64,000 bases of DNA from an uncultured Actinomycetes bacterium (GTDB lineage Bacteria; Actinomycetota; CADDZG01; JAHWKV01): NCBI GenBank assembly GCA_964501265.1, contig CAZCSK010000003.1:67480-131479 (forward strand), written 5' to 3'. Shown here piece by piece: positions 20,639 through 42,553 of the stretch (position 1 is the stretch's first letter; every line of letters begins with the position of its first letter). The position numbers and the translations under genes are program-made. The notes below the pieces were generated by a model. It was given only the letters and a program-made list of their open reading frames with translations. It was not told where the DNA came from and ran no database searches.

Positions 20639-21905
20639 TTCAGGATGTGCCGCGCGACCTTGAGGACCGCTTCGGTGACGTCGTCGCAGTCTTCATCGGT
20701 GAAAGCCGCGCCGACGCCAACAGAAATCGACCGAGATGCGAGGTCTTCGGTACGAGGGCACATGCCCATTCGGTATTCGACATTGCTCGGATGTTCGGCG
20801 CAATTCCACGGCCCTCCCTTTCCAGATGCTGTGCGCTTCGCCAGGATCGAAGGCGTGGCGTAGACGGGTTTACCGTCGTAAATTTGGCCCGATGGGATTC
20901 CTTCCGCTAGAAGCGCCTTCACAAAGAGGCGAGCGGTCTGGGCGTCTGGAAGAAACCAGGTGATGCTTGAGGATCCGTCGCCATCAGGATCAGGGATCCT
21001 TCTTCGTTGCATTCCCGGCACTTCTCCGACCGATCCAAGGATTCTCGTCTTACGTTCTCGCATTCGCTCGAGGAGGCCGGGAAGCTTCTTGAATTGAGGT
21101 CCCGCTATCGCTCCCGCGATTTCCGTCATCCGAAAGTTCTCGCCTACGAAGGGCTCGTCGAGTTCGGCTCCTCGGGTCGACCCGTGACTCGTGACGAACT
21201 GCCCGCCTTGGTCCTGGTAACGGGCGGCGCGCAGGTACAGCTTCTCGTCGGAAGTGACAACTACACCACCTTCTCCGGTGGTCACGTTTTTTTCGAGCTG
21301 AAGCGAAAAGGTGCCGAGTTCACCGAGCGTTCCGAGCGACTTGCCGCGATAGGTCGAACCCATCGACTGAGCGGCGTCCTCCAGGATCGGAATCCCCCGG
21401 CGGTGTGCGATGTCAAGGATGGGATCCATGTCGCATGCCACGTTCTCTAGGTGCACCGGGATAACTGCCGTAGTACGTTCGCTGATCTTTGTCTCGAAGT
21501 CCGCCGGGTCAAGGCCAAGCGTCTCATCGACCTCGGCGAAGACCGGCACTGCTCCGGCAACAACCACGGCGTTCACTGTAGCGATGAAGGTGAATGCAGG
21601 AACGATGACCTCGTCGCCGCAGCCCACCCCAAGCGCCGCCAAGGCGGTGCGCAGAGCAGCGGTTCCGCTCGATGTTGCTACTGCAAACCCGGCTCCCAGC
21701 GTCGCACAAACCGACTTCTCGAAGGCGGCTACTTTTCCCAGGAGATTGGGCCCGTAATAACGGAAAAGCGAGCGGCTCTCGAGCACTTCGAGCACTTCGG
21801 CGCGCTCCTCATCGCCGAGCAGGGCGACGCCCTTTCCAAGAGGCAGCGGATCAAGACGCACAGGCTGGCCGCCGTCTACGGCCAGTCGCTCCGCGGTCTG
21901 CATCC
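20635..21905 (-). CDS. DegT/DnrJ/EryC1/StrS family PLP-dependent sugar aminotransferase
   Basis: Motifs ATSSGTAAL...DEVIVPAFTF and a conserved active-site Lys region. ORF-track N-terminal extension to 22233 rejected (it overlaps the SBP gene); start placed at MQTAERL. Confidence 0.7.
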
Positions 21906-21929
21906 GGATATTTTGTGGCTCGGGCGTTG

Positions 21930-23519
21930 CTATTTGAACCCGAGGTCTTCGCATCCGCCGTTGTTCGGTCCGAAGACTCGGTAATAGCAAGGGTATTTGG
22001 GGAAGAGGTACCTCGCTTCGGCCGTCGACCAGTCGGCCACTGTCCAGTGGCTGAAGCCCCGGGTCTTGTAGGGCCCGCCCGCCGGGAACTTGTACTCCAT
22101 TGGCACGTGCGCGTCCCAGAAGAAATCGTTGCGGATCATATCGGCACCGAGCATGAATGAGTTGGCGTCGAGCACACCGGTCCTCTTGTAGCCTCGGTTC
22201 ATGATTTCCGAGGTCGAAAGGATTCCCGTGCACGCAATGAGAACCGCCGCCGACTCGCTCTGTCCGTCATTCCCGTTGTAGGACTCGTAGATCTTCTTGC
22301 AGTTTTGAAACTTGGGGTGACCGGGAACCCTTGTCGATAGTCCGATGGCGTTCTCCCATTGCACCTGATCCATTAGCTTCGAAATATTGTCGTCGTCGCT
22401 TAGAGCGGTGCGGGAAGTCCAAGTCCACTTTGGAAAATAATTGTTCTGTGTGGCGGCATCGGTCATAAAAATGAGCCCGATGGTGTTGCCGGCCATGAAC
22501 CAAACCTGCCCGCACCCTTTGTTCTTGGCACGGACGACGATGGTGTTGGACTGCGATTGCGCGGTTTCGAGTTTGTCCTCGAAAACCATGATGTCCCCAA
22601 ATTCCAGACCGTACTTTTTCATCTTGCTTACGAGGATTTGCTGGGGAATGTCCCAGTTGCCGCTGGCTCCGGTTTCTATCCGGATGAGGCACGGCAGGTT
22701 GCCGGGAGCAACTTGGCTTACATATTTGGTAGTACCAGTTTGCAGGTAATTCTTCCCGAAGCTCGCCCACGCCTCCAGCGTTGGGTCGGCGGGGGCGAAA
22801 AGCGCAAGCCCGTTTGGCCCAGACTTTTCGAGCGAAGCGGGGTCGTCGCGCCCGCCCCAAACCGGGACCTTGCGCGAGATGACGTAATCGGATGCGATGT
22901 CGAGACCAGGGATGGCAAGGAAAACTTTCTCTTCGTCGGCCATCTTGATTGCTGCAGCGACGTTTTTTTCAGGGCAGCCCGAACCTCCGTCATCGAAAAT
23001 CATGGCCTTATAGGTTCGGCCCCCGGCAACCCCTCCTTTGTCGTTCACATAACGCGCGAACGTTTCGATTGCCTTTTTTATGTCTCCGGCCTGATTGGCG
23101 AACATCGCCTCGAGAACTCCTGCGTCGCCACAGGCAGCCACGTTGTAAGAGATCCCCACTTTGACTTCCTTCGCAGTGATCCCTTGAGTTTTTAGTCCGA
23201 AGTCCAGCGCCCCGCCGCTCGTGGTTCCCCCACCCGTACCCGCGCCCCCGATTCTCTTAACGGTAGGACCGCCGGATACTCCCGGGATGGGCGAGCCATC
23301 AATAGTGCCTGGCGCCGTGGCCTCCCCTAGCGAAGGATCGGACGCGTTGCCTTGTTCACCCGTGGCGTTTGGGCCGGTAGTGATCTTGTCGGAATTCGGT
23401 CCGCGTGCCCCAAAGGACGCTATCGCGGTGATGATCAGCACCCCCGAGGCGATCAAGAGGCCTCGAACCCATGCTTGCGTTTTGAGGAGCTCGTTGAACG
23501 CTTTGAGTCGACCCATCAT
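21930..23519 (-). CDS. Liv-type (Peripla_BP_6) ABC substrate-binding protein with N-terminal membrane anchor
   Basis: N-terminal TM/signal segment, G/T-rich linker, then ITAKEVKVGISY... typical of LivK/amide-urea family SBPs. 529 aa. Confidence 0.6.
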   Translation of the reverse strand: MMGRLKAFNELLKTQAWVRGLLIASGVLIITAIASFGARGPNSDKITTGPNATGEQGNASDPSLGEATAPGTIDGSPIPGVSGGPTVKRIGGAGTGGGTTSGGALDFGLKTQGITAKEVKVGISYNVAACGDAGVLEAMFANQAGDIKKAIETFARYVNDKGGVAGGRTYKAMIFDDGGSGCPEKNVAAAIKMADEEKVFLAIPGLDIASDYVISRKVPVWGGRDDPASLEKSGPNGLALFAPADPTLEAWASFGKNYLQTGTTKYVSQVAPGNLPCLIRIETGASGNWDIPQQILVSKMKKYGLEFGDIMVFEDKLETAQSQSNTIVVRAKNKGCGQVWFMAGNTIGLIFMTDAATQNNYFPKWTWTSRTALSDDDNISKLMDQVQWENAIGLSTRVPGHPKFQNCKKIYESYNGNDGQSESAAVLIACTGILSTSEIMNRGYKRTGVLDANSFMLGADMIRNDFFWDAHVPMEYKFPAGGPYKTRGFSHWTVADWSTAEARYLFPKYPCYYRVFGPNNGGCEDLGFK

Positions 23520-23521
23520 CT

Positions 23522-24334
23522 TTATTCCCCTCCCACAGACATAGACATATTACTCGCCTTGAGACGCTCGGAATTGCCCTCGTATGCTGGGACGATCGTG
23601 TCAAGATTCGAGACGAGATGTAGAAGGCCCCACGGTGCGGCCGACTTGGCGTGCTCGGGCGCGCGTGTGGTTTCGACTTGCAATCCTTTGAGGCCAGCGC
23701 GAACGAGATCTACTATTCGCGGGTAATCGCGAGCAATGCCCCCGCCTAATACAACGATTGATCCAACGGTAGCGAGTGGCTCTCGATGGATCGCCTCGGC
23801 GATGGCCGAAGCCGCCGCAACGATGGAAGCGCTATCGATTGGTTTGGGCAGAGCCCATCCTGCAGCGACGGTCTCGAGACAACCCCGGCCCCCGCACGGG
23901 CAAACGGTAGACCCAAATCCCCCCATATGACCGAAAAGATTTTCCGCGATCAATTCTCCATCCTCGACCACCGCACCGCCGATGCCGGTCCCAAGGCCCA
24001 AGTAGATCAGACGACCCAACACCTCGGCCCCGCGCAGGCGCGCTTCCCCAAGCGCCGCGGCGCCGGCGTCGTTGACGACGATACAAGCGGGCCCCTCGAG
24101 GCCCAGCTTCTCGACGGGGTCGATGTCGGTCCACCCGAGGTTGGACGCTTCCAGGACACGGCCGTCTTCAATCAAGCCGGGGACCGCTATAGCAAGCTCA
24201 TGGCAAGTCGGACGGTGGGCGGCATCAACAAAGCTATGGGAGCCATCGGCCCTGAAAAGGACAGTCTGGATGCTACTTGCGCCGACCTCCACGCAGGCTA
24301 CGGATCGGTTCAAGACGCGATCACCTTTCCCCAT
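23522..24334 (-). CDS. ROK-family sugar kinase (no HTH domain)
   Basis: ROK motifs VACVEVGASS (ATP-binding beta-hairpin) and the C-x-C-G-x-x-G-C zinc motif (CPCGGRGC). Start uncertain: no strong RBS at 24334. Confidence 0.55.
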   Translation of the reverse strand: MGKGDRVLNRSVACVEVGASSIQTVLFRADGSHSFVDAAHRPTCHELAIAVPGLIEDGRVLEASNLGWTDIDPVEKLGLEGPACIVVNDAGAAALGEARLRGAEVLGRLIYLGLGTGIGGAVVEDGELIAENLFGHMGGFGSTVCPCGGRGCLETVAAGWALPKPIDSASIVAAASAIAEAIHREPLATVGSIVVLGGGIARDYPRIVDLVRAGLKGLQVETTRAPEHAKSAAPWGLLHLVSNLDTIVPAYEGNSERLKASNMSMSVGGE

Positions 24335-24361
24335 GTCAAGATAGCGAATGTGAATGCAAAG

Positions 24362-24375
24362 TATACATACAAATC
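24362..24375. promoter_or_regulatory. TATACATACAAATC motif in the divergent ROK-kinase/nagA promoter region
   Basis: Identical 14-mer to 7067-7080. Located between divergent starts (24334 minus, 24421 plus). Confidence 0.25.
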
Positions 24376-24420
24376 TCGGAAGGTTGCGCAGACTTGGGCG
24401 CCGGATACACTGCCCCAACG

Positions 24421-25638
24421 ATGACCAGCACCGTCCTTGCAGCGACGAGGGTCCTCGGCCCCCCAAAAGGGGACTTGCACCCGAAAGGGGACTTGCACCC
24501 GAAAGGGGACTTGCACCCGAAAGGGGACTTGCACCCGAAAGGGGATTTGGCGGCCGAAACCGATGGTCGTCCTACCGCCGAAGGTCGGTGGATAGCGATC
24601 GAGGATGGTCGGATCACCCAGGTGGGGCTCGGAACGCGGCCGCGGGGCGCCGAAGAACTCTCCGGATTCCTTACTCCCGGGTTCATCGACCTGCAGGTAA
24701 ACGGGATCGGCGACGTGGACTTTGCCGACGCGACCACCCAGGATTGGCAGCGAGCGAAAATGGAATTGCTGTCCCATGGGGTCACCGGCTTTCTTCCGAC
24801 GCTGACTTCGGGCCCACTCGATTCATATTCCGAAAAACTGACCGCTATTGGAGGAGCCAAGCGCGTAAATGTGGGGGCTACTGTTCTGGGCGCGCACCTC
24901 GAAGGGCCTTTCCTGGGAGGCGCTCCAGGCGCGCACACCAAAGAGTTCCTGCGCGCTGCCGACCCCGACTGGCTTGCTGGACTATTGAAAACATTCCCGG
25001 ACCTGATTGCCTTGATGACTCTGTCCCCTGAAGCCGATACGAACTTGCAAGCCACCCGGTTGCTGGCACGGTCAGGCGTGGTAGTTGCGCTCGGACACTC
25101 GACCGCGACTTACGATGAAGCGCGCGCCGCGGTCGACGCGGGCGCCGTGATGGTCACTCATCTCTTCAACGCAATGTCCCCCCTTGCCCATCGCGACCCC
25201 GGGCTGGTCGGCGCAGCGCTCGACGACGACAGGCTCACGCCCACTCTCATCGCGGATCTCGTGCACGTACATCCGGCCGCGCTCCGGCTAGCCATCCAAC
25301 GCAAAGAGAATGTTGTAATTGTTAGCGACTCCATCGGGCCGGATTCCAAGCTGGCGCTAAGCCTTGGGGTGCGCGTTGTCGGAGGCGCTCCAAGACTGTC
25401 CGACGGAACTCTCGCCGGATCGGTGCTCACGCTCGATGTCGCGATCGCAAATCTCGTTCGCATCGGTATCTCACTTGAGCGCGCAGTTGAAATGGCCTCG
25501 GCCATTCCGGCCGCGATCCTGGGCCTGACCGACAGGGGGGCGATTGAGCCTGGTCGACGCGCCGATCTCGTGCTGCTCGAGCCCGAGTCTCTGCGAGTCC
25601 TGAAGGTTTGGGTCGAGGGGCAACTCGTTCATGGCTGA
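24421..25638 (+). CDS. nagA: N-acetylglucosamine-6-phosphate deacetylase carrying an in-frame (PKGDLH)x5 repeat insertion near the N-terminus
   Basis: NagA motifs GFIDLQVNG, HLEGPFL, GHS(T)A and HLFNAM. N-terminal beta-strand VLAATRVL aligns to E. coli LTQGRIF. An 18-bp tandem repeat sits between strands 1 and 2. Confidence 0.75.
   Translation: MTSTVLAATRVLGPPKGDLHPKGDLHPKGDLHPKGDLHPKGDLAAETDGRPTAEGRWIAIEDGRITQVGLGTRPRGAEELSGFLTPGFIDLQVNGIGDVDFADATTQDWQRAKMELLSHGVTGFLPTLTSGPLDSYSEKLTAIGGAKRVNVGATVLGAHLEGPFLGGAPGAHTKEFLRAADPDWLAGLLKTFPDLIALMTLSPEADTNLQATRLLARSGVVVALGHSTATYDEARAAVDAGAVMVTHLFNAMSPLAHRDPGLVGAALDDDRLTPTLIADLVHVHPAALRLAIQRKENVVIVSDSIGPDSKLALSLGVRVVGGAPRLSDGTLAGSVLTLDVAIANLVRIGISLERAVEMASAIPAAILGLTDRGAIEPGRRADLVLLEPESLRVLKVWVEGQLVHG
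24462..24551 (+). repeat. 18-bp tandem repeat x5 (cccgaaaggggacttgca; three perfect central copies) encoding PKGDLH hexapeptide repeats inside nagA
   Basis: Direct reading of sequence 24462-24551. Each unit contains CCC-GAAA-GGG (GNRA-tetraloop-like mini-hairpin). Confidence 0.85.
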
Positions 25639-26944
25639 CCTGCCCGGGGGATCCGGCCCGAACGGACAGCCCTGGCTCGGCGCTGTGGAGGGCTACTACG
25701 GGCCTCCCCTCAAACCGGCCGATCGCCTCGAACTGATCGCATGGCTGGCCCATCACGGATACAACTGCTACGCCTACGGGCCCAAAGACGATCCTTTCCA
25801 CCGCGATAGCTGGAGGGAGCCATACCCAATTGAGCGCGAGTCGGAGATCAAGGAGCTGATAGCGACGGGTGCGCGAGTCGGCACCGAGGTGGCGATGGGC
25901 ATTTCGCCGGGCCTTGACTGGAAGGGCGGCGACGAAACGCCATTGGTCGCCAAGCTCGCCCGCTTCCGCGAACTCGGCGCGAAAGTGCTAGCAGTCGCCT
26001 GGGACGACGTTCCACCCGGAGGTGCCGAACTGGGGGCCGCTCACGGTTCGGCGGTTGCGCACGCAGTAAAGGAGGTCGGTGACGACCTCTTATGGTTCAC
26101 CGTCCCGACCGATTACGCCACCGCCCATGCGACAGATTACTTAAAGGCATTCGTCGACCGACTGCCCATGGAAGTCGAGGTGGCGTGGACCGGCCCCAGT
26201 ATTGTGAGCCCTCGTGTTACCGGAGCCGACGCGGCCCGTCTCGCAGCGCAGTTAGGTCGCAAGCTTCTCTTCGCCGAAAACTTTCCGGTGAATGACGGTG
26301 CCATGGGCGGAGTGCTCCACCTCGGCCCATACCCCGATCGCTCGCCCGATCTGGTGAACGAAACGACGGGTGTCTTCTGCAACTTCATGTCGTTACCAAG
26401 AGCGAGCAGAGTGGGGCTGTCGGTCGCAGCTCGCTTCTGGAAGGAGCCTCACGTAGATCGAGAAGCAGCATGGCTCGAAGCACTTAGCGATTTTTCAGGA
26501 CTCGAGCCCCTGGCTCGCGCAAGCCGGAGTTGGATCGACTCCCCCGGCCCCGACGCGGAGTTGTCGTCGTGGGCGGAGTCGGTGGTCGACGGAGACGACC
26601 GGCTCGGCTCCTATCTACAAGCCGGCTGCAGAGACCAATTGGATCCATTGCTCGCGGCGGAAGTTGAACCGTGGCTCGACCAGTGGGACCGTGAATCTCA
26701 CGCGATGCAGGCCGCCATCGCGATGCTTTCGCATCCGCATCCCCGACCGGTCGAGCTTTCCTTCCTCACTGCGACGCTCTGGGATCTCGCCCGACACGCG
26801 CGGCAACAGTTGTTCGGAATTCGATGGGCTTACTACCCGGTGACCGCTCGCGTCGGTGATCAACTCGTCGCAACACCGGAAGCGCTGGTGCGTGGCGAGA
26901 ATCTTACCGATCGCCTTTGCGCGCAAGCACTTTCAAAGAGTTAG
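25631..26944 (+). CDS. GH84-family beta-N-acetylglucosaminidase (O-GlcNAcase/NagJ-like)
   Basis: N-terminal GAVEGYYGPP...YAYGPKDDPFHR and catalytic Asp-Asp in LAVAWDDV match GH84. Start overlaps the nagA stop by 8 nt. Confidence 0.65.
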   Translation: MADLPGGSGPNGQPWLGAVEGYYGPPLKPADRLELIAWLAHHGYNCYAYGPKDDPFHRDSWREPYPIERESEIKELIATGARVGTEVAMGISPGLDWKGGDETPLVAKLARFRELGAKVLAVAWDDVPPGGAELGAAHGSAVAHAVKEVGDDLLWFTVPTDYATAHATDYLKAFVDRLPMEVEVAWTGPSIVSPRVTGADAARLAAQLGRKLLFAENFPVNDGAMGGVLHLGPYPDRSPDLVNETTGVFCNFMSLPRASRVGLSVAARFWKEPHVDREAAWLEALSDFSGLEPLARASRSWIDSPGPDAELSSWAESVVDGDDRLGSYLQAGCRDQLDPLLAAEVEPWLDQWDRESHAMQAAIAMLSHPHPRPVELSFLTATLWDLARHARQQLFGIRWAYYPVTARVGDQLVATPEALVRGENLTDRLCAQALSKS

Positions 26945-28158
26945 ATCGAGAGGTGGAAAGTCTCCGAGAGCACGAGTCCTGCGGCCCCAAGGAGGCCGGC
27001 GCGCTGGTCGAGTTCTGAGAGAACAACCTCGACGTAATCGCGGAGGTTTACAAGAACTCGTTCCTTTGTCTTTCGATCGATCAGCGCACGCAACGTCTCT
27101 CCCCCGCCAACCGCATCCCCATGGATTATGAAAAGGCCCGGATTGAGAATTTGAGTGAGGTTGGCAAGACCGATCGCCAAGTGGTCCGCATACTCCTCGA
27201 GCAAACCCGCAGCCTCAGTGGAACTCTCGGCCTGGCCTACCAGCGCCCGAGCATCGAGGCTCTCGGCGTCGCTCAATGCCCGACGCGCTGCCTCAGCGCG
27301 CAACCACCGCAGAGTCGCGATTGTTTCCCAACAGCCCTTCAGTCCGCAACGACACATCTCGCCGTCAGGAACGACAGCGCAGTGCCCGGCCTCGCCGGCC
27401 TCTCCCTGTCGCCCGCGATAGATCGTGCCCCCGACAACCATCCCCACGCCGATGCCGTGACCGGTTTGAATCGAAGCGAACGTTGAAATGCCGCGTCCTT
27501 TGCCGAACCACTTCTCCCCCAACGCTTGCGCACGGGAGTCGTTGTCGAGCAAGACGGGTAATCGGAATTTCGCGGCGATGCTGTCGCTGAGCGTGGTACC
27601 GGCAAGGCCCGGAACCTGGCCGGATCCCACGATCCTGCCGGAAGATGTGTCACAAACCCCCGGAACCGCGATCCCGATACCGAGGAGTTCATCGGCCGAA
27701 CTGGGAATGATTTTTTCAAGGCCCCGAGAGATGGCTTCTATCGCGGAAGTGCCGTCCGGATCGGTAGGGTCAAACTCACCCTCGACTTCTTCCAGGAAGT
27801 CGCCGCGCGCGTTAACTAATGCCGCCTGAAATGTTCCCTCGGCTATAGCAACCGCTCCAGTGAGCCCCGCCCTTTCACCGAACCAGAGCGGACGCCCGCG
27901 CTTGCCAACTTGACCCGTGCTTTCGCGAGGCTCTCCTTCCTCTATTAACCCTGCCTCAAGAAGCACAGCGACGATGTTGCCTATGGTCGCCCGCGTAACA
28001 TGGGCCATCTTTGCGAGCTCGGCGCGAGACAGGGGGCCGTGGTCGCAGAATGCCTGCATCACCCGCGAACGGTTCACGTCGCCAATCTTGCTCGGTGTTA
28101 GCAGCCGACCGTTGAATGTGCGGGTTGGTTGCGCGGGTCTTTCGCCGGAGGTCTTCAT
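26941..28158 (-). CDS. ROK-family transcriptional regulator (NagC/XylR-like; N-terminal wHTH + ROK sugar-binding domain)
   Basis: HTH: RSRVMQAFCDHGPLSRAELAKMAHVTRATIGNIVAVLLEAGLI. ROK zinc motif CRCGLKGCWE. Confidence 0.7.
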   Translation of the reverse strand: MKTSGERPAQPTRTFNGRLLTPSKIGDVNRSRVMQAFCDHGPLSRAELAKMAHVTRATIGNIVAVLLEAGLIEEGEPRESTGQVGKRGRPLWFGERAGLTGAVAIAEGTFQAALVNARGDFLEEVEGEFDPTDPDGTSAIEAISRGLEKIIPSSADELLGIGIAVPGVCDTSSGRIVGSGQVPGLAGTTLSDSIAAKFRLPVLLDNDSRAQALGEKWFGKGRGISTFASIQTGHGIGVGMVVGGTIYRGRQGEAGEAGHCAVVPDGEMCRCGLKGCWETIATLRWLRAEAARRALSDAESLDARALVGQAESSTEAAGLLEEYADHLAIGLANLTQILNPGLFIIHGDAVGGGETLRALIDRKTKERVLVNLRDYVEVVLSELDQRAGLLGAAGLVLSETFHLSI

Positions 28159-29609
28159 GAGCGCAGGCGTTTGCGCAGAAGGTCATTGATCATCGCTGGA
28201 TTGCCGCGGCCCCCAGTTGCCTTCATAACCTGTCCGACCATGAAACCGAAGGGTTTGTCTTCGCCCGCCCTGATCCGTTCGGCAACTTCGGGGTTGTCAG
28301 CGATGGCCCTATCTACGGCCACTTCAATTTCGGTGGTGTCCGATACCTGACTGATCCCACGTTCCTGGACGATTTCCGATGGTGGTCGTCCGCTCGTCAG
28401 CGCTTCGGCCAGCACCTCGTTGCCCTGACTCTTGGAGATGTCTCCGCCAGCGACGAGGTCGGCTACCTCCGCCAAATGCGCGGGGGTGGCATGCGTATCG
28501 GTAAGAGATCTCTCGCCCAACAGACCAAGGAGGTCGTTTACAAACATATTGGCCACCTGTTTTGAGTCCGCTACTCGCGTCGCGGCCACTGTCTCCTCAT
28601 AGAAATCTGCGATCGTCCTCGATGACGTAAGCACGGCCGCTCCCGCCGGGCCGGCATGCTCGCCAAGTCGCCTTCGTCTCTCTGCCGGCAATTCGGGGAT
28701 CTCCTCATGCAACTGCCGCAGCCACTCGACCGACGGCTCAATCGGGACGAGGTCCGGTTCCGGAAAATAGCGGTAATCGAACGCTTCCTCCTTGGAGCGC
28801 AGGGGCTTGGTGACGCCGGCCTTCTCGTCCCAGTGTCGCGTCGACTGCTCGACCGGCGCTCCCTTTGCAATCAGTTCGCTCTGCCTTTTTTCTTCGTAGA
28901 CAAGAGCCCGGTGCACCGAGCGCAGGGAGTTCATGTTCTTGACCTCCGCCTTCGTCCCGCGCTCTCCCGCTCGAGCAACCGAGATGTTGGCATCGACGCG
29001 CATCGAACCCTCTTCCATGCGCACGTCGGAGACTTCCAGATAATCCAAGATTGCCCGCAATTCCGCGGCGAAAGCGCGCGCCACATCCGGCGACGGAATG
29101 TCGGGCTCTGTGACGATCTCCACCAGCGGCGTGCCGGCGCGGTTGAAATCTTCCAACGAATACTCAGCGGCGTGGATGCGTCCCCCCTCTCCGGCGTGAA
29201 GCGACTTACCGGTGTCCTCCTCGAGGTGGACCCGAGTGATTCCAACCGCATGGACCGACCCGGCCACTTCGATATTCACCGCCCCCCTCGAACCAATCGG
29301 AATGTCGTACTGGGAGATCTGGTAGTTCTTCGGCATGTCCGGATAAAAGTAATTCTTCCGATGGAAGATCGAGCGCGGTGAGATGTCGCATCCCACGGCC
29401 ATGGCGATCTTTGTTGTGAACTCAACCGCGGTCTCGTTCGCAACGGGCAACGTGCCGGGATGGCCCAGGCAGACCGCGCACACACGAGAATTGGGCTCTC
29501 CAGCAAAGGCGACCGCACAACCGCAGAACATCTTGGTCGCAGTCCTGAGCTGGACATGGATCTCGAGGCCTATTGTAGTGACGAGATCGCTCACGTCGAC
29601 GCGCCCCAC
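28155..29609 (-). CDS. gatB: Asp-tRNA(Asn)/Glu-tRNA(Gln) amidotransferase subunit B
   Basis: [10 protein letters not shown]...KMFCGC...[13 protein letters not shown], the GatB N-terminal signature. Confidence 0.85.
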
Positions 29610-37798: not shown

Positions 37799-39067
37799 TT
37801 GAACGAATACTCGAGGGCTCGGGCGGTGATGCCAGGCGGAGTTTCATCTCCCGTCCGCGCCTTCGGCGCGGTCGGCGGCGACCCCATTTTCATTAGATCG
37901 GGAAGTGGAAGTCGTGTAACCGACATCAAGGGCCGCGAGTACATAGACATGCTCGCGTCTTGGGGGCCGCTGATTCTGGGACACGCCGACACAAAGGTGG
38001 TCGAAGCAATAAACCAAGCTGCGGCGCGGGGAACATCTTTCGGAGCGCCGACGACTACAGAGACCGACCTCGCCGAGGCAATCGTGGCCGCACTGCCGTC
38101 GGTCGAGATGGTGCGGTTTGTATCTTCGGGAACCGAGGCGGCGATGAGCGCGATTCGCCTCGCACGAGCGGCCACCGGCAAGCCGAAGATACTCAAGTTC
38201 GCAGGCTGCTACCACGGACACGCGGACGCTCTTCTGGTGTCCGCTGGCTCGGGGCCGGCAACCCTCGGCCTCCCCGATTCGCCTGGCGTAACCGAGGGCA
38301 CTCGAGCCGATACCGTCGTGGCTCACTTCAACTCAACCGAATCGGTGACGCAAGCCTTCGATCAATTCGGCCCGGACCTAGCGGCGATCATCGTCGAACC
38401 AGTCGCGGCCAACATGGGCGTGGTGCCACCGGCATCGGAGTTTCTTGCACAACTGCGCCGCCTCTGCGACATCAACGAATCCCTGTTGATCTTCGACGAA
38501 GTCGTGACCGGCTTTCGCGTCTCGTACGCGGGCGCCCAAGGAATGTATGGGATCGATCCTGATCTCACCATCCTCGGCAAGATCATCGGCGGAGGTTTGC
38601 CGGTGGGCGCGTACGGGGGCCGGCGCGATCTCATGGAGATGATCGCCCCTTCGGGTCCCGTCTATCAAGCGGGAACGCTGTCGGGCAATCCGGTCAGCAT
38701 GGCCGCCGGCCTCGCCACCATCAACCAACTTAGTCGGAACGATCCCTATGAGCGGCTAGAGAAGATGGGAACAGTGCTACAAGAGGGGCTCGAAGCGGCT
38801 GCCCACGATTCAGCAACGCCAGTGACCGTGCAGCGAGTAGGCTCGATGCTGACGGTATTCTTCACCGATGCGGCCCCAGTTGATTTTCAAGGTGCGAAAC
38901 GCTCCGATACTGCGGCCTTCGCCAAGTTCTTTCATTCGATGCTTAAACAGGGCGTCTACTGGCCGCCCTCGCAATTTGAGGCGGCGTTCCTGAGTACCGC
39001 CCACACGGAAGCCGACATCGAGCAAGTCATTTCCGCCGCTGCAATTTCATTTGAAAGGATAAGTTGA
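37799..39067 (+). CDS. hemL: Glutamate-1-semialdehyde 2,1-aminomutase
   Basis: N-terminus MPGGVSSPVRAF and class-III aminotransferase motifs. Confidence 0.85.
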   Translation: MNEYSRARAVMPGGVSSPVRAFGAVGGDPIFIRSGSGSRVTDIKGREYIDMLASWGPLILGHADTKVVEAINQAAARGTSFGAPTTTETDLAEAIVAALPSVEMVRFVSSGTEAAMSAIRLARAATGKPKILKFAGCYHGHADALLVSAGSGPATLGLPDSPGVTEGTRADTVVAHFNSTESVTQAFDQFGPDLAAIIVEPVAANMGVVPPASEFLAQLRRLCDINESLLIFDEVVTGFRVSYAGAQGMYGIDPDLTILGKIIGGGLPVGAYGGRRDLMEMIAPSGPVYQAGTLSGNPVSMAAGLATINQLSRNDPYERLEKMGTVLQEGLEAAAHDSATPVTVQRVGSMLTVFFTDAAPVDFQGAKRSDTAAFAKFFHSMLKQGVYWPPSQFEAAFLSTAHTEADIEQVISAAAISFERIS

Positions 39068-39753
39068 TGGCTGAAGATCGTAAAGTGATGCGTTACGCGT
39101 TCTATTCTGTGGATTCCTCCTGGCGAAATCTTCCCGATGAGGAGCGCACGCTTCACAAAAAGGAGTTCATCGAAGTCGTATCCCACGCACCTTGTGAAGT
39201 GCACCCCTATTCCACGGTGGGCCTGCGCGCCGATTCGGATCTCGCCCTTTGGGAAATCGCGGACGGGGCGGAGCAAATTCAAAACTTTCAGGCCGACCTC
39301 AACGCCACCGCCCTAGGGCGAGCGCTGAAGCCTAGCCACTCATTCCTGGCGATGACCAAGAAGTCCACATACTTGAAAGATCATAAGCACGAAGGCCAGG
39401 AGTTCAACATGCCGGCCGGACCGAAGGGCAGCTCCTACCTGTTCGTCTATCCGATGGACAAACTGCGCCCGTGGTATCGCCTGCCCTTCGAGGAGCGCCG
39501 CAAGATCATGGGAGCGCACTTCAAGACCGGTCATCACTACCCAGGGATAGCAATCCACACGGGTTACTCATTTGGCATAGACGACCAAGAGTTCGTGGTC
39601 GCATTCGAAGGTGAATCTCTCGGCGAATTCTTGGATCTGGTGCAGGAGTTGCGGGAGTCGGAGTCGTCGAGTTACACGGCCCGCGATGTCCCCATCTTTA
39701 CCTGCATTAAGATGCCCCTGGAACAAATCCTCAACCAACTGGATGGAGCGTGA
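39064..39753 (+). CDS. chdC: Coproheme decarboxylase (HemQ/ChdC, chlorite dismutase family)
   Basis: 229 aa, N-terminal YAFYSV...WR, chlorite-dismutase-like. Terminal gene of the heme operon. Confidence 0.7.
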   Translation: MMAEDRKVMRYAFYSVDSSWRNLPDEERTLHKKEFIEVVSHAPCEVHPYSTVGLRADSDLALWEIADGAEQIQNFQADLNATALGRALKPSHSFLAMTKKSTYLKDHKHEGQEFNMPAGPKGSSYLFVYPMDKLRPWYRLPFEERRKIMGAHFKTGHHYPGIAIHTGYSFGIDDQEFVVAFEGESLGEFLDLVQELRESESSSYTARDVPIFTCIKMPLEQILNQLDGA

Positions 39754-39773: not shown

Positions 39774-40169
39774 CTATCTCGGAGCCACAACCCGTAGGCC
39801 CAAGCCGAGCGCAGCTTCAGCCATCCTCTTGTCGTAAGTGACGACCTCCTCTAACTCCGATCCCAAAGCGAGAGCCGATGCCAGGTGTATGGCGTCGAGG
39901 GTTCTGAGGGTCAGGGGTTCGAGGAAGGCTGCGCGCTCGAGCAACTCCTCATCAATCGTCAACAGATCTAATCGTCTGAGCACATCGCGGGCCCTTAGAA
40001 GAGGCTCGGGCCCAATACCGTAAGCGGCCCTTAGAACCTCCGCACGAGCCAACGCGCTCGACACTCTTCGTCCGAGCAACTGCCAATACCGACGCAGGGC
40101 AGTCGATTCCGGCTCTTTGGCGACAAGTTTCAGCAGAGCGGAGGAATCTAGGTAGACGATCGATGCCAT
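39774..40169 (-). CDS. vapC: Type II toxin VapC (PIN domain ribonuclease)
   Basis: MASIVYLDSSALLKL with conserved acidic PIN residues. 131 aa, directly downstream of the antitoxin gene. Confidence 0.7.
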   Translation of the reverse strand: MASIVYLDSSALLKLVAKEPESTALRRYWQLLGRRVSSALARAEVLRAAYGIGPEPLLRARDVLRRLDLLTIDEELLERAAFLEPLTLRTLDAIHLASALALGSELEEVVTYDKRMAEAALGLGLRVVAPR

Positions 40170-41009: not shown

Positions 41010-41780
41010 TTGAAAAGACTCGCCACTCTGAGCGCGATTTTGATCTTCGCCGCTGGATATATAGGACTGACGGCCACGCCCGCCCACGCCAAGTGCACGG
41101 ACGTGAAGTTCAGCAAGTCCAACTATCACGTGAACGAAGTAGACGGGGAAGTGGCGATCACGATCAAACGTGATATCAGTCTGCTCGGATGCCCTGGGAC
41201 GTTGAACTACAGCACCCAAGACGACAGCGCCACCGCGCCTTTCGATTACACGCAAACGAGCGACGAGTACATTTTTACCGAACCTACGCAGTCGACATAC
41301 ACGTTCACTATTCCGATCGTGAATGATGTCCTCCTTGAAGGCCCGGAGAGATTCAAGGTGAGCTTCGAGGCCTTCAACGACGCAACGACCGAACGCGGGA
41401 CTGCGACCGTCACGATCGCCGATAATCGCTTCGCTACTCCACCGCCTCCTCCTCCGCCTTCGACCACGACTTCGACTTCCGGTTCCTCTTCATCAGTCGT
41501 CTTGTCCAACAAACCGGCCCGGTCGGGGTCAACCCCCGCTGCAGCACCTTCCCCTCCGATTCAGCAGGAGCCGGTTGAGGCCGAGCCCGCGATCCAGATC
41601 GAATCCGAATCAGCTCCCATTGTGGCCCGCTCTCTCGCTTTGGCACAAGGAAAGGACCGAAACATGAGCGGAAAAAAGCTTTGGGCTTTTCTGCTGGTCG
41701 TACTGCTCGCCGCGACAGCGTTTTTACTCGTCGCGTGGCGTGTTCGTAGGAGCCCAAGAGAACACTTCAGTACTCTCTAG
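41010..41780 (+). CDS. Surface protein: signal peptide + Calx-beta domain + Pro/Ser/Thr linker + C-terminal TM anchor
   Basis: TTG start with GGAGG RBS. Calx-beta-like pattern (Y.V.E..G.V.I.R...DGTA-like DDSATAPFDY...F.V). C-terminal LWAFLLVVLLAATAFLLVAWRVRR. Confidence 0.5.
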   Translation: MKRLATLSAILIFAAGYIGLTATPAHAKCTDVKFSKSNYHVNEVDGEVAITIKRDISLLGCPGTLNYSTQDDSATAPFDYTQTSDEYIFTEPTQSTYTFTIPIVNDVLLEGPERFKVSFEAFNDATTERGTATVTIADNRFATPPPPPPPSTTTSTSGSSSSVVLSNKPARSGSTPAAAPSPPIQQEPVEAEPAIQIESESAPIVARSLALAQGKDRNMSGKKLWAFLLVVLLAATAFLLVAWRVRRSPREHFSTL

Positions 41781-41836: not shown

Positions 41837-42553
41837 ATGAGGAAGTTTGTCGCTCTTGTCGCCATGTTGATCCTGACAGCCACCTTCTTAGTTGTTTCAG
41901 CCGATCCTGCCGCAGCCGCTTGCCATGAAGCAGCTTTTAGCCCCACAACTCAGCAGGTCAACGAGAGCGCCGGGACTGTGAAGTTGAAGGTCATTCTCGT
42001 GGGCGGTGCTTCAACCTGCTCGGGTACGGTCAATTACCAAACAGAGAACGGAACAGCTGAAGGAGGGCAAGATAAGGATTTTGCCCCTGCCCAGGGATCT
42101 CTCACTTTCGTGGCGAACGACGATCGGCAGGAGGAGATCACCGTCCAGATCTTGGAGGACACGAACTTCGAGAACAACGAGACTTTCAAAGTCAAGCTCA
42201 CCGGATGCAACGGCGCGATCACAGTTTGTTCCAGCCAGGCAACCGTCACTATCGCCGACAACGACTCGGCACCGTCTCCCCCTCCGCCCGCTACGACTTC
42301 TCCGAGTCCGAAGAAGTCTCCGTCCCCATCTCCCTCACCTTCGCCTTCGCCGTCGCCGTCCCCAAGCCCTACTGAATCAGAGGACCCTGAGGAATCGCCT
42401 TCGGCTTCACCCGAGGCCTCGGCTTCGCCGAGTCCCCTCATCCAAACCCAGGGCAAGTCCGGCGGCGGCAAGAAGGTGGCGATCATCGCCCTAATCGCCG
42501 CGCTGGTTGCGGGCGGCGCTGGATTTGGTCTCTGGAAGTTACGCCAAACTTAA
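41837..42553 (+). CDS. Paralogous Calx-beta surface protein with (SP)n linker and C-terminal TM anchor
   Basis: GGGAGGAACGAG RBS. Calx-beta-like core (VNESAGTVKLKV...NGTAEGGQDKDF). SPSPSP low-complexity linker. C-terminal GGGKKVAIIALIAALVAGGAGFGLWKLRQT. Confidence 0.5.
   Translation: MRKFVALVAMLILTATFLVVSADPAAAACHEAAFSPTTQQVNESAGTVKLKVILVGGASTCSGTVNYQTENGTAEGGQDKDFAPAQGSLTFVANDDRQEEITVQILEDTNFENNETFKVKLTGCNGAITVCSSQATVTIADNDSAPSPPPPATTSPSPKKSPSPSPSPSPSPSPSPSPTESEDPEESPSASPEASASPSPLIQTQGKSGGGKKVAIIALIAALVAGGAGFGLWKLRQT

Follow-up and report, generated by a model that had tools for sequence, protein, structure and literature searches.

The nagA gene lying within the 64-kb stretch of actinobacterial DNA analysed here (the window) carries, close to its 5' end, five head-to-tail copies of an 18-bp unit (24462-24551, + strand), all of them translated in the frame of the gene. 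The reading that we consider probable is that of a young in-frame coding minisatellite, formed by a 42-bp insertion and a subsequent amplification of an 18-nt unit, within a loop of the NagA protein that tolerates the added length.

Tandem Repeats Finder (TRF) placed the array at 24462-24549, with a period of 18, 4.9 copies, 97% matches, no indels and a score of 162, compared to a score of 54 for the second-ranked array of the 64-kb window. The consensus unit was CCCGAAAGGGGACTTGCA. When this unit was searched for at ≤3 mismatches, five matches were obtained, head to tail over 24462-24551, with 1, 0, 0, 0 and 3 mismatches in order (i.e., three identical units, flanked by a first unit with one change and a last unit with three); the chance expectation from shuffles was 0.04, and no further match was seen outside the array on either strand of the window. 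With the register set to begin at 24466, four perfect copies of AAAGGGGACTTGCACCCG were seen (24466-24537, + strand), and perfect periodicity ran on up to 24545, for a total of 80 nt. The array begins 42 nt downstream of the first base of the nagA start codon (ATG 24421; 41 nt in the TRF register, from 24462) and occupies codons 15-44 (24463-24552). TRF, the five matches and the translation thus confirmed the claim, made in an initial annotation of this DNA, of an in-frame array of five 18-bp units. The peptide had been written there as (PKGDLH)5, which held for four units; the fifth ends in Ala, so that the array encodes (PKGDLH)4 + PKGDLA. A CCC-GAAA-GGG sequence assigned to every unit was present in four of the five, the first unit reading CCC-AAAA-GGG. 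The further suggestion that the central units were perfect copies, and their expansion recent, agreed with four units showing no difference between them. With a unit of at least 10 nt repeated head to tail beyond chance, and a period that is a multiple of 3 kept in frame in a real gene, the array is a coding minisatellite, or in-frame VNTR, of the ordinary kind. The unit combines the common codons CCG, GAC and CAC with the minority codons AAA (37%), GGG (22%) and TTG (15%); this mix was not striking, and the idea of a rare-codon or translational ramp was dropped. A downstream start at the in-frame TTG (24547-24549), which would place the array in a 5' leader, was ruled out by conservation of ATG 24421 and of the strand-1 peptide in all relatives.

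The host gene (24421-25638, + strand) encodes a protein of 405 aa that was identified as N-acetylglucosamine-6-phosphate deacetylase. It scored 244.3 bits with TIGR00221 (equivalog cutoff, 225.65), its best PDB sequence matches were all GlcNAc-6-P deacetylases (E 2e-53 to 7e-39), and Pfam returned amidohydrolase domains only; the AlphaFold2 (AF2) model and the Foldseek search described below agreed. These results bore out the naming of the gene as nagA in the initial annotation. The nearest named homologues were from Acidimicrobiia and Actinomycetota MAGs, at ~57-64% identity. Residues Q92, N94, E161, H172, H226, H247 and D303 were invariant columns of the 67-sequence family alignment and, mapped to the E. 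coli residue numbers, correspond to the metal and catalytic set of NagA (QxN or HxH, Glu, two His, a catalytic Asp and a substrate-polarising His). The QxN motif, here Q92/N94, marks the mononuclear E. coli/V. cholerae type of NagA (PMC6016474). Values of dN/dS for nagA, compared with the three closest relatives, were 0.16-0.23, which argues for purifying selection and against a pseudogene. Judged from sequence and model, the gene is an intact and functional-looking NagA. The context is consistent with the predicted deacetylase activity: nagA adjoins a divergent gene for a ROK-family sugar kinase (23522-24334, - strand) and a gene for a GH84-type β-N-acetylglucosaminidase whose start overlaps the nagA stop (25631-26944), with a gene for a ROK/MarR-type regulator beyond (26941-28158, - strand). 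The divergent intergenic region between the kinase gene and nagA (24335-24420, no strand assigned) contained, in a four-lineage alignment, an invariant 26-mer (24348-24373) and an invariant GATACACTG (24404-24412). A scan of 24150-24700 for consensus promoters and terminators gave no sites.

The position of the array in the protein was assessed from an alignment with 66 homologues and from an AF2 model built on 67 sequences. Both place it between strand 1 of the small β-barrel domain (residues 4-11, TVLAATRV, 24430-24453, + strand; DSSP E4-8 and E10-11 in the model, and conserved in the alignment) and strand 2 (residues 56-61, RWIAIE, 24586-24603, + strand, with the family-invariant W57), i.e., within the N-terminal hairpin, as had been proposed from the sequence. 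Across the window protein and the 66 homologues the flanks were conserved as M-x-T-x-V-L-A-A-x-R-V-L-G-P before the array and G/A-R/x-W-I/V-A-I-E/D-D-G after it, the Trp being invariant. The β1-β2 turn between them comprised 2-11 residues in 65 of the 66 homologues and 16 in the remaining one (P0001, from a close relative), compared to 40 in the window protein. The model had a mean pLDDT of 88.7 and a pTM of 0.87, and its sole long stretch of low confidence was residues 18-52 (pLDDT <50). An orthologue without insert (P0002) gave a mean pLDDT of 93.7, with strands at 4-11 and 17-23 and a turn of five residues between them, and the order of secondary structure in the two models was otherwise the same. 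Modelling NagA with and without the insert, a check that the initial annotation had recommended, therefore gave a disordered insert and an unchanged enzyme around it; we describe the insert as a predicted disordered segment. When Foldseek was run with the window model, the top 33 PDB matches were all NagA or human AMDHD2 (TM 0.68-0.89). In NagA, domain I forms the dimer interface and the active sites; domain II does not contribute to substrate binding and, apart from its importance for stability, has no clear role (PMC6016474). Since the turn belongs to a domain outside substrate binding, dimer interface and active site, the insert sits in a surface loop, distant from the active site, where added length is plausibly tolerated.

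Three close relatives were found in the reachable collections, all of them metagenome assemblies: P0001, encoded on contig L001 (Logan, SRR6868921); P0002, on L002 and L003 (ENA ERZ27311206 and Logan ERR6862852); and P0003, on L004 (like L001, from SRR6868921). Contig L002 was syntenic with the window across the whole nag neighbourhood. The turn in P0002 reads CPTQGRW and that in P0003 GPAEGRW, both without an insert; the turn in P0001 is GPPKGGFAAEADDRPTAEGRW, with one unit (GP-PKGGFAAEADDRPT-AEGRW). Comparison of orthologous nagA genes, also advised beforehand, thus gave five units for the window and a single unit for L001, with L002, L003 and L004 lacking the insert, and together with the 66-homologue alignment it bore out the claim that the array is an insertion relative to orthologues. 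Unit number therefore varies between related genomes, these being different lineages (nagA dS 0.24-0.7). L001 carries the same 14-residue (42-bp) insert as the window, with a single unit. A DNA alignment of the window with L001, L002 and L004 showed flanks that are colinear base for base and a window sequence longer than that of L001 by exactly 72 nt, made up of the four identical units at 24466-24537; the excess of 24 aa accounts for the NagA lengths of 405 aa (window) and 381 aa (L001). The 42-bp insert common to the window and L001, and absent from L002, L003 and L004, corresponds to the CCA codon 24463-24465 plus the older, non-repeated part at 24538-24576 (+ strand), which contains the last diverged unit and AETDGRPT and is unique within the window. 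The single unit of L001 equalled the last, diverged unit of the window at 15/18 bases (manual comparison), and the 5' edge CCA AAA GGGG was common to the two.

Synonymous distances for nagA were 0.24 (window-L001), 0.39 (window-L002) and 0.28 (L001-L002), with each at ~0.7 from L004, and gave the tree ((window, L001), L002), L004. By parsimony on this tree, the 42-bp insert is derived and the 72-nt excess arose on the window branch. The zero differences among the four units, set against a dS of 0.24 to L001, indicate that the amplification, or the last homogenisation, was recent. Contraction on the L001 branch, in place of expansion in the window, would on these sequences be a residual possibility. 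That the single copy in L001 represents a collapsed array is unlikely: Logan contigs were, we presume, assembled with k = 31, which is longer than the 18-nt unit, and a one-unit path needs k-mers that join both flanks. Between the four identical units and the resident last unit there were 3-6 differences in 18 positions, the number varying with the register, so that one simple duplication does not suffice and at least one older imperfect duplication or a divergence step is needed. We can only speculate that in this older step a duplication took place between two microhomologies, CCAAAA and CCGAAA, at a distance of 19 nt, and that one base was corrected afterwards. TRF run on L001 found no older cryptic repeat in the 42-bp insert, and the CCRAAR motifs that recur there were too weak for any claim. 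The single-copy allele contains a GCCCCC-CAAAA-GGGGGC hairpin (DNA fold z = -1.98, reached by 8 of 200 shuffles), which gives a weak hint of a slippage-prone seed.

We examined if the repeat occurred elsewhere. Neither the unit nor the non-repeated part of the insert was found at another place in the window, and the unit-junction pattern GGGGAYTTGCACCCRAAAGGGGA gave 0 matches in JGI metagenome contigs and 0 in IMG/VR; a dispersed repeat or mobile element was ruled out on these grounds. The NagA protein, searched against genome and metagenome contigs, found only relatives at ≤46% identity (apart from one 42-residue fragment at 69%) and no allele of the same species. When the 44-residue insert was used for an exhaustive HMMER scan of 1.84 billion representative proteins, 59 matches were obtained at E≤1e-3, none of which contained (PKGDLH)n and none of which was a NagA. 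The 16 that were inspected of these 59 were unrelated low-complexity proteins (phage-fibre-like QPKGDYALKSDL, collagen-like GPKGD, and short ORFs) and were rejected as homologues. Word-index protein searches with short N-terminal queries returned almost no candidates, and the known P0001 was among those that they missed.

The course of events that we propose would have had two steps. The common ancestor of the window and L001 lineages would have gained 42 bp (14 residues) in the tight β1-β2 turn of the small β-barrel; thereupon, on the window branch, the 18-nt unit at the 5' edge of this insertion would have been amplified, by replication slippage or unequal recombination, to add four identical units (72 nt, 24 residues). 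Mutation of long, pure tandem repeats consists chiefly in whole units being added or lost, by slippage or recombination (PMC3899988), and actinobacterial genes other than those of the PE/PPE families can contain in-frame intragenic VNTRs (PMC12817950). NagA remains in frame because the period is a multiple of 3, and the (PKGDLH)n peptide would loop out as a disordered segment that the enzyme tolerates, since the turn forms a loop at the surface, in a domain outside catalysis and the dimer interface. Slippage is the mechanism that we infer, and the expansion was probably near-neutral; against neutrality, a flexible loop rich in His, Asp and Lys on a metalloenzyme could affect function. Copy number may still be unstable, as a deduction and not an observation, given that the only allele with another unit number comes from a different lineage (dS 0.24).

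The array could instead act at the level of nucleic acid, with the CCC-GAAA-GGG hairpins tuning nagA translation or with the units serving as protein-binding iterons by the divergent nag promoter. A 3-bp GNRA-type hairpin can be drawn in each unit, and the array lies 42 nt (41 in the TRF register) past the first start-codon base, beside a strongly conserved divergent control region; but fold energies were indistinguishable from those of shuffled sequences. The RNA fold of 24400-24600 was -75.9 kcal/mol, compared to -73.2 +/- 4.9 for dinucleotide shuffles (z = -0.54), and its ensemble was diffuse, with an MFE frequency of ~0.001 and a centroid unpaired over the array. DNA folds of 24455-24560 and of sub-arrays gave z = -1.0, -1.2 and -0.6, and Rfam, at the gathering threshold, had no match in the whole window. 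The suggestion of a structured-RNA repeat was accordingly not upheld (RNA z -0.54, DNA z -1.0, no Rfam match), and the mini-hairpins are a by-product of the unit sequence that does not speak for a structured element. The motif was found nowhere else in the window, and relatives with the same conserved control region do without the array: this region is conserved in four lineages, two of them lacking the insert, which sets the array outside the conserved regulation. We therefore hold a role as a nucleic-acid element to be very improbable. To a classical phase-variation locus, in which slipped-strand mispairing would switch nagA on and off, we give next to no credence. The repeat does lie near the 5' end of the coding sequence, a position enriched for switching repeats in pathogens (PMC3899988), but gain or loss of a whole 18-nt unit never shifts the frame, which closes that route to on/off control, and the product is a cytoplasmic catabolic enzyme and not that of a surface or restriction-modification gene. 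Nor would a change in unit number alter promoter spacing, as the array is inside the ORF with a period divisible by 3. The earlier proposal of a contingency or VNTR locus consequently stood in one half: the locus is VNTR-like between lineages (five units, one unit or no insert), whereas on/off contingency does not fit a period of 18 nt, which keeps the frame.

Two further readings concern the protein and the assembly. The (PKGDLH)n peptide might give NagA a new or tunable property on which unit number is selected, e.g., His/Asp-mediated metal capture, a flexible tether, a site of interaction, or a change in oligomerisation or stability. In its favour, a gene that is otherwise under constraint keeps the array strictly in frame, every unit has a His, an Asp and a Lys, one lineage enlarged the loop on two occasions (by 42 bp and then by 72 bp), and domain II, whose role is unknown, matters for stability (PMC6016474). 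Frame retention is, nevertheless, trivially explained by purifying selection against frameshifts; the units are identical in DNA, leaving no time for selection on their sequence; AF2 gives the insert no structure; nothing similar was present in the 66 other NagA proteins aligned; and among the 1.84 billion representative proteins there was no (PKGDLH)n, the matches being unrelated low-complexity repeats. We judge an adaptive VNTR unlikely. The more specific notion that the β1-β2 turn is an "evolvability hotspot", where a copy-number-variable loop rich in His, Asp and Lys tunes metal acquisition, stability or partner binding, seems distinctly unlikely; if true, it would represent a rare adaptive in-frame VNTR in a core catabolic enzyme in place of a surface protein. 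An assembly artefact, in which the repeat exists but its true unit number is not five, or in which the array is a mis-join, is rather unlikely, though it deserves some weight. Assembly errors at tandem repeats are common (PMC6868369), and the array has 80 nt of perfect 18-nt periodicity; the exact window protein is absent from the public gene catalogue, and no second contig with the array junction was present in JGI metagenomes or IMG/VR. Against this, an array of ~90 nt is shorter than ordinary Illumina reads and hence can be spanned by them, the flanks run colinear with those of L001 down to the single base, with the reading frame kept, and the outermost units show the ancestral states of L001 (5' edge, CCA; 3' edge, GCG GCC), which is the pattern of a genuine array.

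Provided that the copy number is genuine and does vary, the young minisatellite could serve, modestly, as a convenient strain marker for this uncultured actinobacterial lineage and as a natural experiment on the amount of disordered insertion that the N-terminal hairpin of an amidohydrolase small domain can bear; it would also be a clean example of how a coding minisatellite arises step by step, from no unit to one and to five across three related lineages. Knowledge of NagA chemistry and of nag regulation is left unchanged by the array, and no long-standing question is opened by it. A limited literature search found no report of such a repeat in nagA.

In comparison with known systems, the window protein resembles canonical NagA (E. 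coli 2P50/1YRR, V. cholerae 3EGJ, K. pneumoniae 9UP6) in its (β/α)8 barrel with a small β-barrel formed from the N- and C-terminal parts, and canonical QxN mononuclear NagA in its active-site set of QxN, Glu, His, His and Asp; it differs in a β1-β2 turn of 40 residues, in which the additional segment is repetitive, with predicted disorder. The array shares with the contingency loci of Neisseria and Haemophilus a tandem repeat near the 5' end of an ORF and a change in unit number driven by slippage, whereas its period is 18 and not an out-of-frame 1-8 nt, there is no switching, and the host is a catabolic, housekeeping gene. The resemblance to bacterial intragenic VNTRs is closer: units of more than 10 nt lie head to tail with a period that is a multiple of 3 in a functional actinobacterial gene, unit number differs between related genomes, and expansion is by slippage or recombination. 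Such VNTRs are found inside Mycobacterium tuberculosis genes outside PE/PPE, e.g., fhaA, rplW and aftC (PMC12817950); unlike these, the present array is hosted by nagA in an uncultured actinobacterium that does not look like a pathogen, and its variation is between lineages only (5 vs 1 unit). What is particular here is the cytoplasmic catabolic enzyme as host, the placement in the first β-hairpin, and the series of 0, 1 and 5 units over three lineages.

The divergent intergenic region between the ROK-family kinase gene and nagA (GlcNAc-6-P deacetylase) contains a 26-mer, ATGTGAATGCAAAGTATACATACAAA (24348–24373), which in a DNA alignment of four lineages showed zero differences among the window and the metagenome-derived contigs L001 (the closest relative), L002 and L004. 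Synonymous divergence of nagA among the same four reached up to about 0.7, yet the 26-mer was unchanged; it is probably the nag cluster's operator or promoter core, and perhaps the site at which the adjoining ROK/MarR regulator (26941–28158, minus strand) acts. Closer to the gene, the sequence GATACACTG (24404–24412) was likewise invariant in all four lineages, with its end positioned 9 nt upstream of the nagA ATG (counting its own last base). No obvious Shine-Dalgarno sequence was seen upstream of the ATG within 24404–24420, and a scan for the sigma-70 consensus around the nagA start returned no sites. The nagA transcript may lack a leader or carry only a very short one, in which case TACACT would be the -10 element. 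At the other end of the gene, the nagA stop overlaps by 8 nt (25631–25638) the start of the downstream gene for a GH84-type beta-N-acetylglucosaminidase (25631–26944), an arrangement common to L001–L004, which suggests translational coupling of the two genes.

In the one-unit nagA allele of L001 (L001 positions 462–500), the quasi-palindrome GCCCCC-CAAAA-GGGGGC precedes a mini-hairpin, GGCC-GAAG-CCG; folded as DNA, this allele gave -11.9 kcal/mol (z -1.98), a value reached by 8 of 200 shuffles. The quasi-palindrome and mini-hairpin could have been the slippage-prone seed of the array. When the window from 21000 to 29000 was compared with L001 and L002, identity upstream of nagA was 92% to L001 versus about 81–84% to L002, whereas over most of nagA and the downstream gene it was 87.5% to L001 and 89.8% to L002; this shift along the nag locus may reflect recombination among the three lineages.

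Elsewhere in the window, a gene for a PIN-domain (VapC-like) protein (39774–40169, minus strand) adjoins a chlorite-dismutase-family gene (39064–39753, plus strand), the latter probably of the haem-biosynthesis ChdC/HemQ type. Two paralogous genes lying side by side (41010–41780 and 41837–42553) encode small proteins, both built from a signal-like segment at the N-terminus, a single Calx-beta domain, a linker rich in Pro and Ser, and a hydrophobic anchor at the C-terminus. In the second gene, the (SP)n linker is encoded by a period-6/12 tandem repeat (42316–42364), which gives the window a second in-frame repeat, more conventional than the nagA array.
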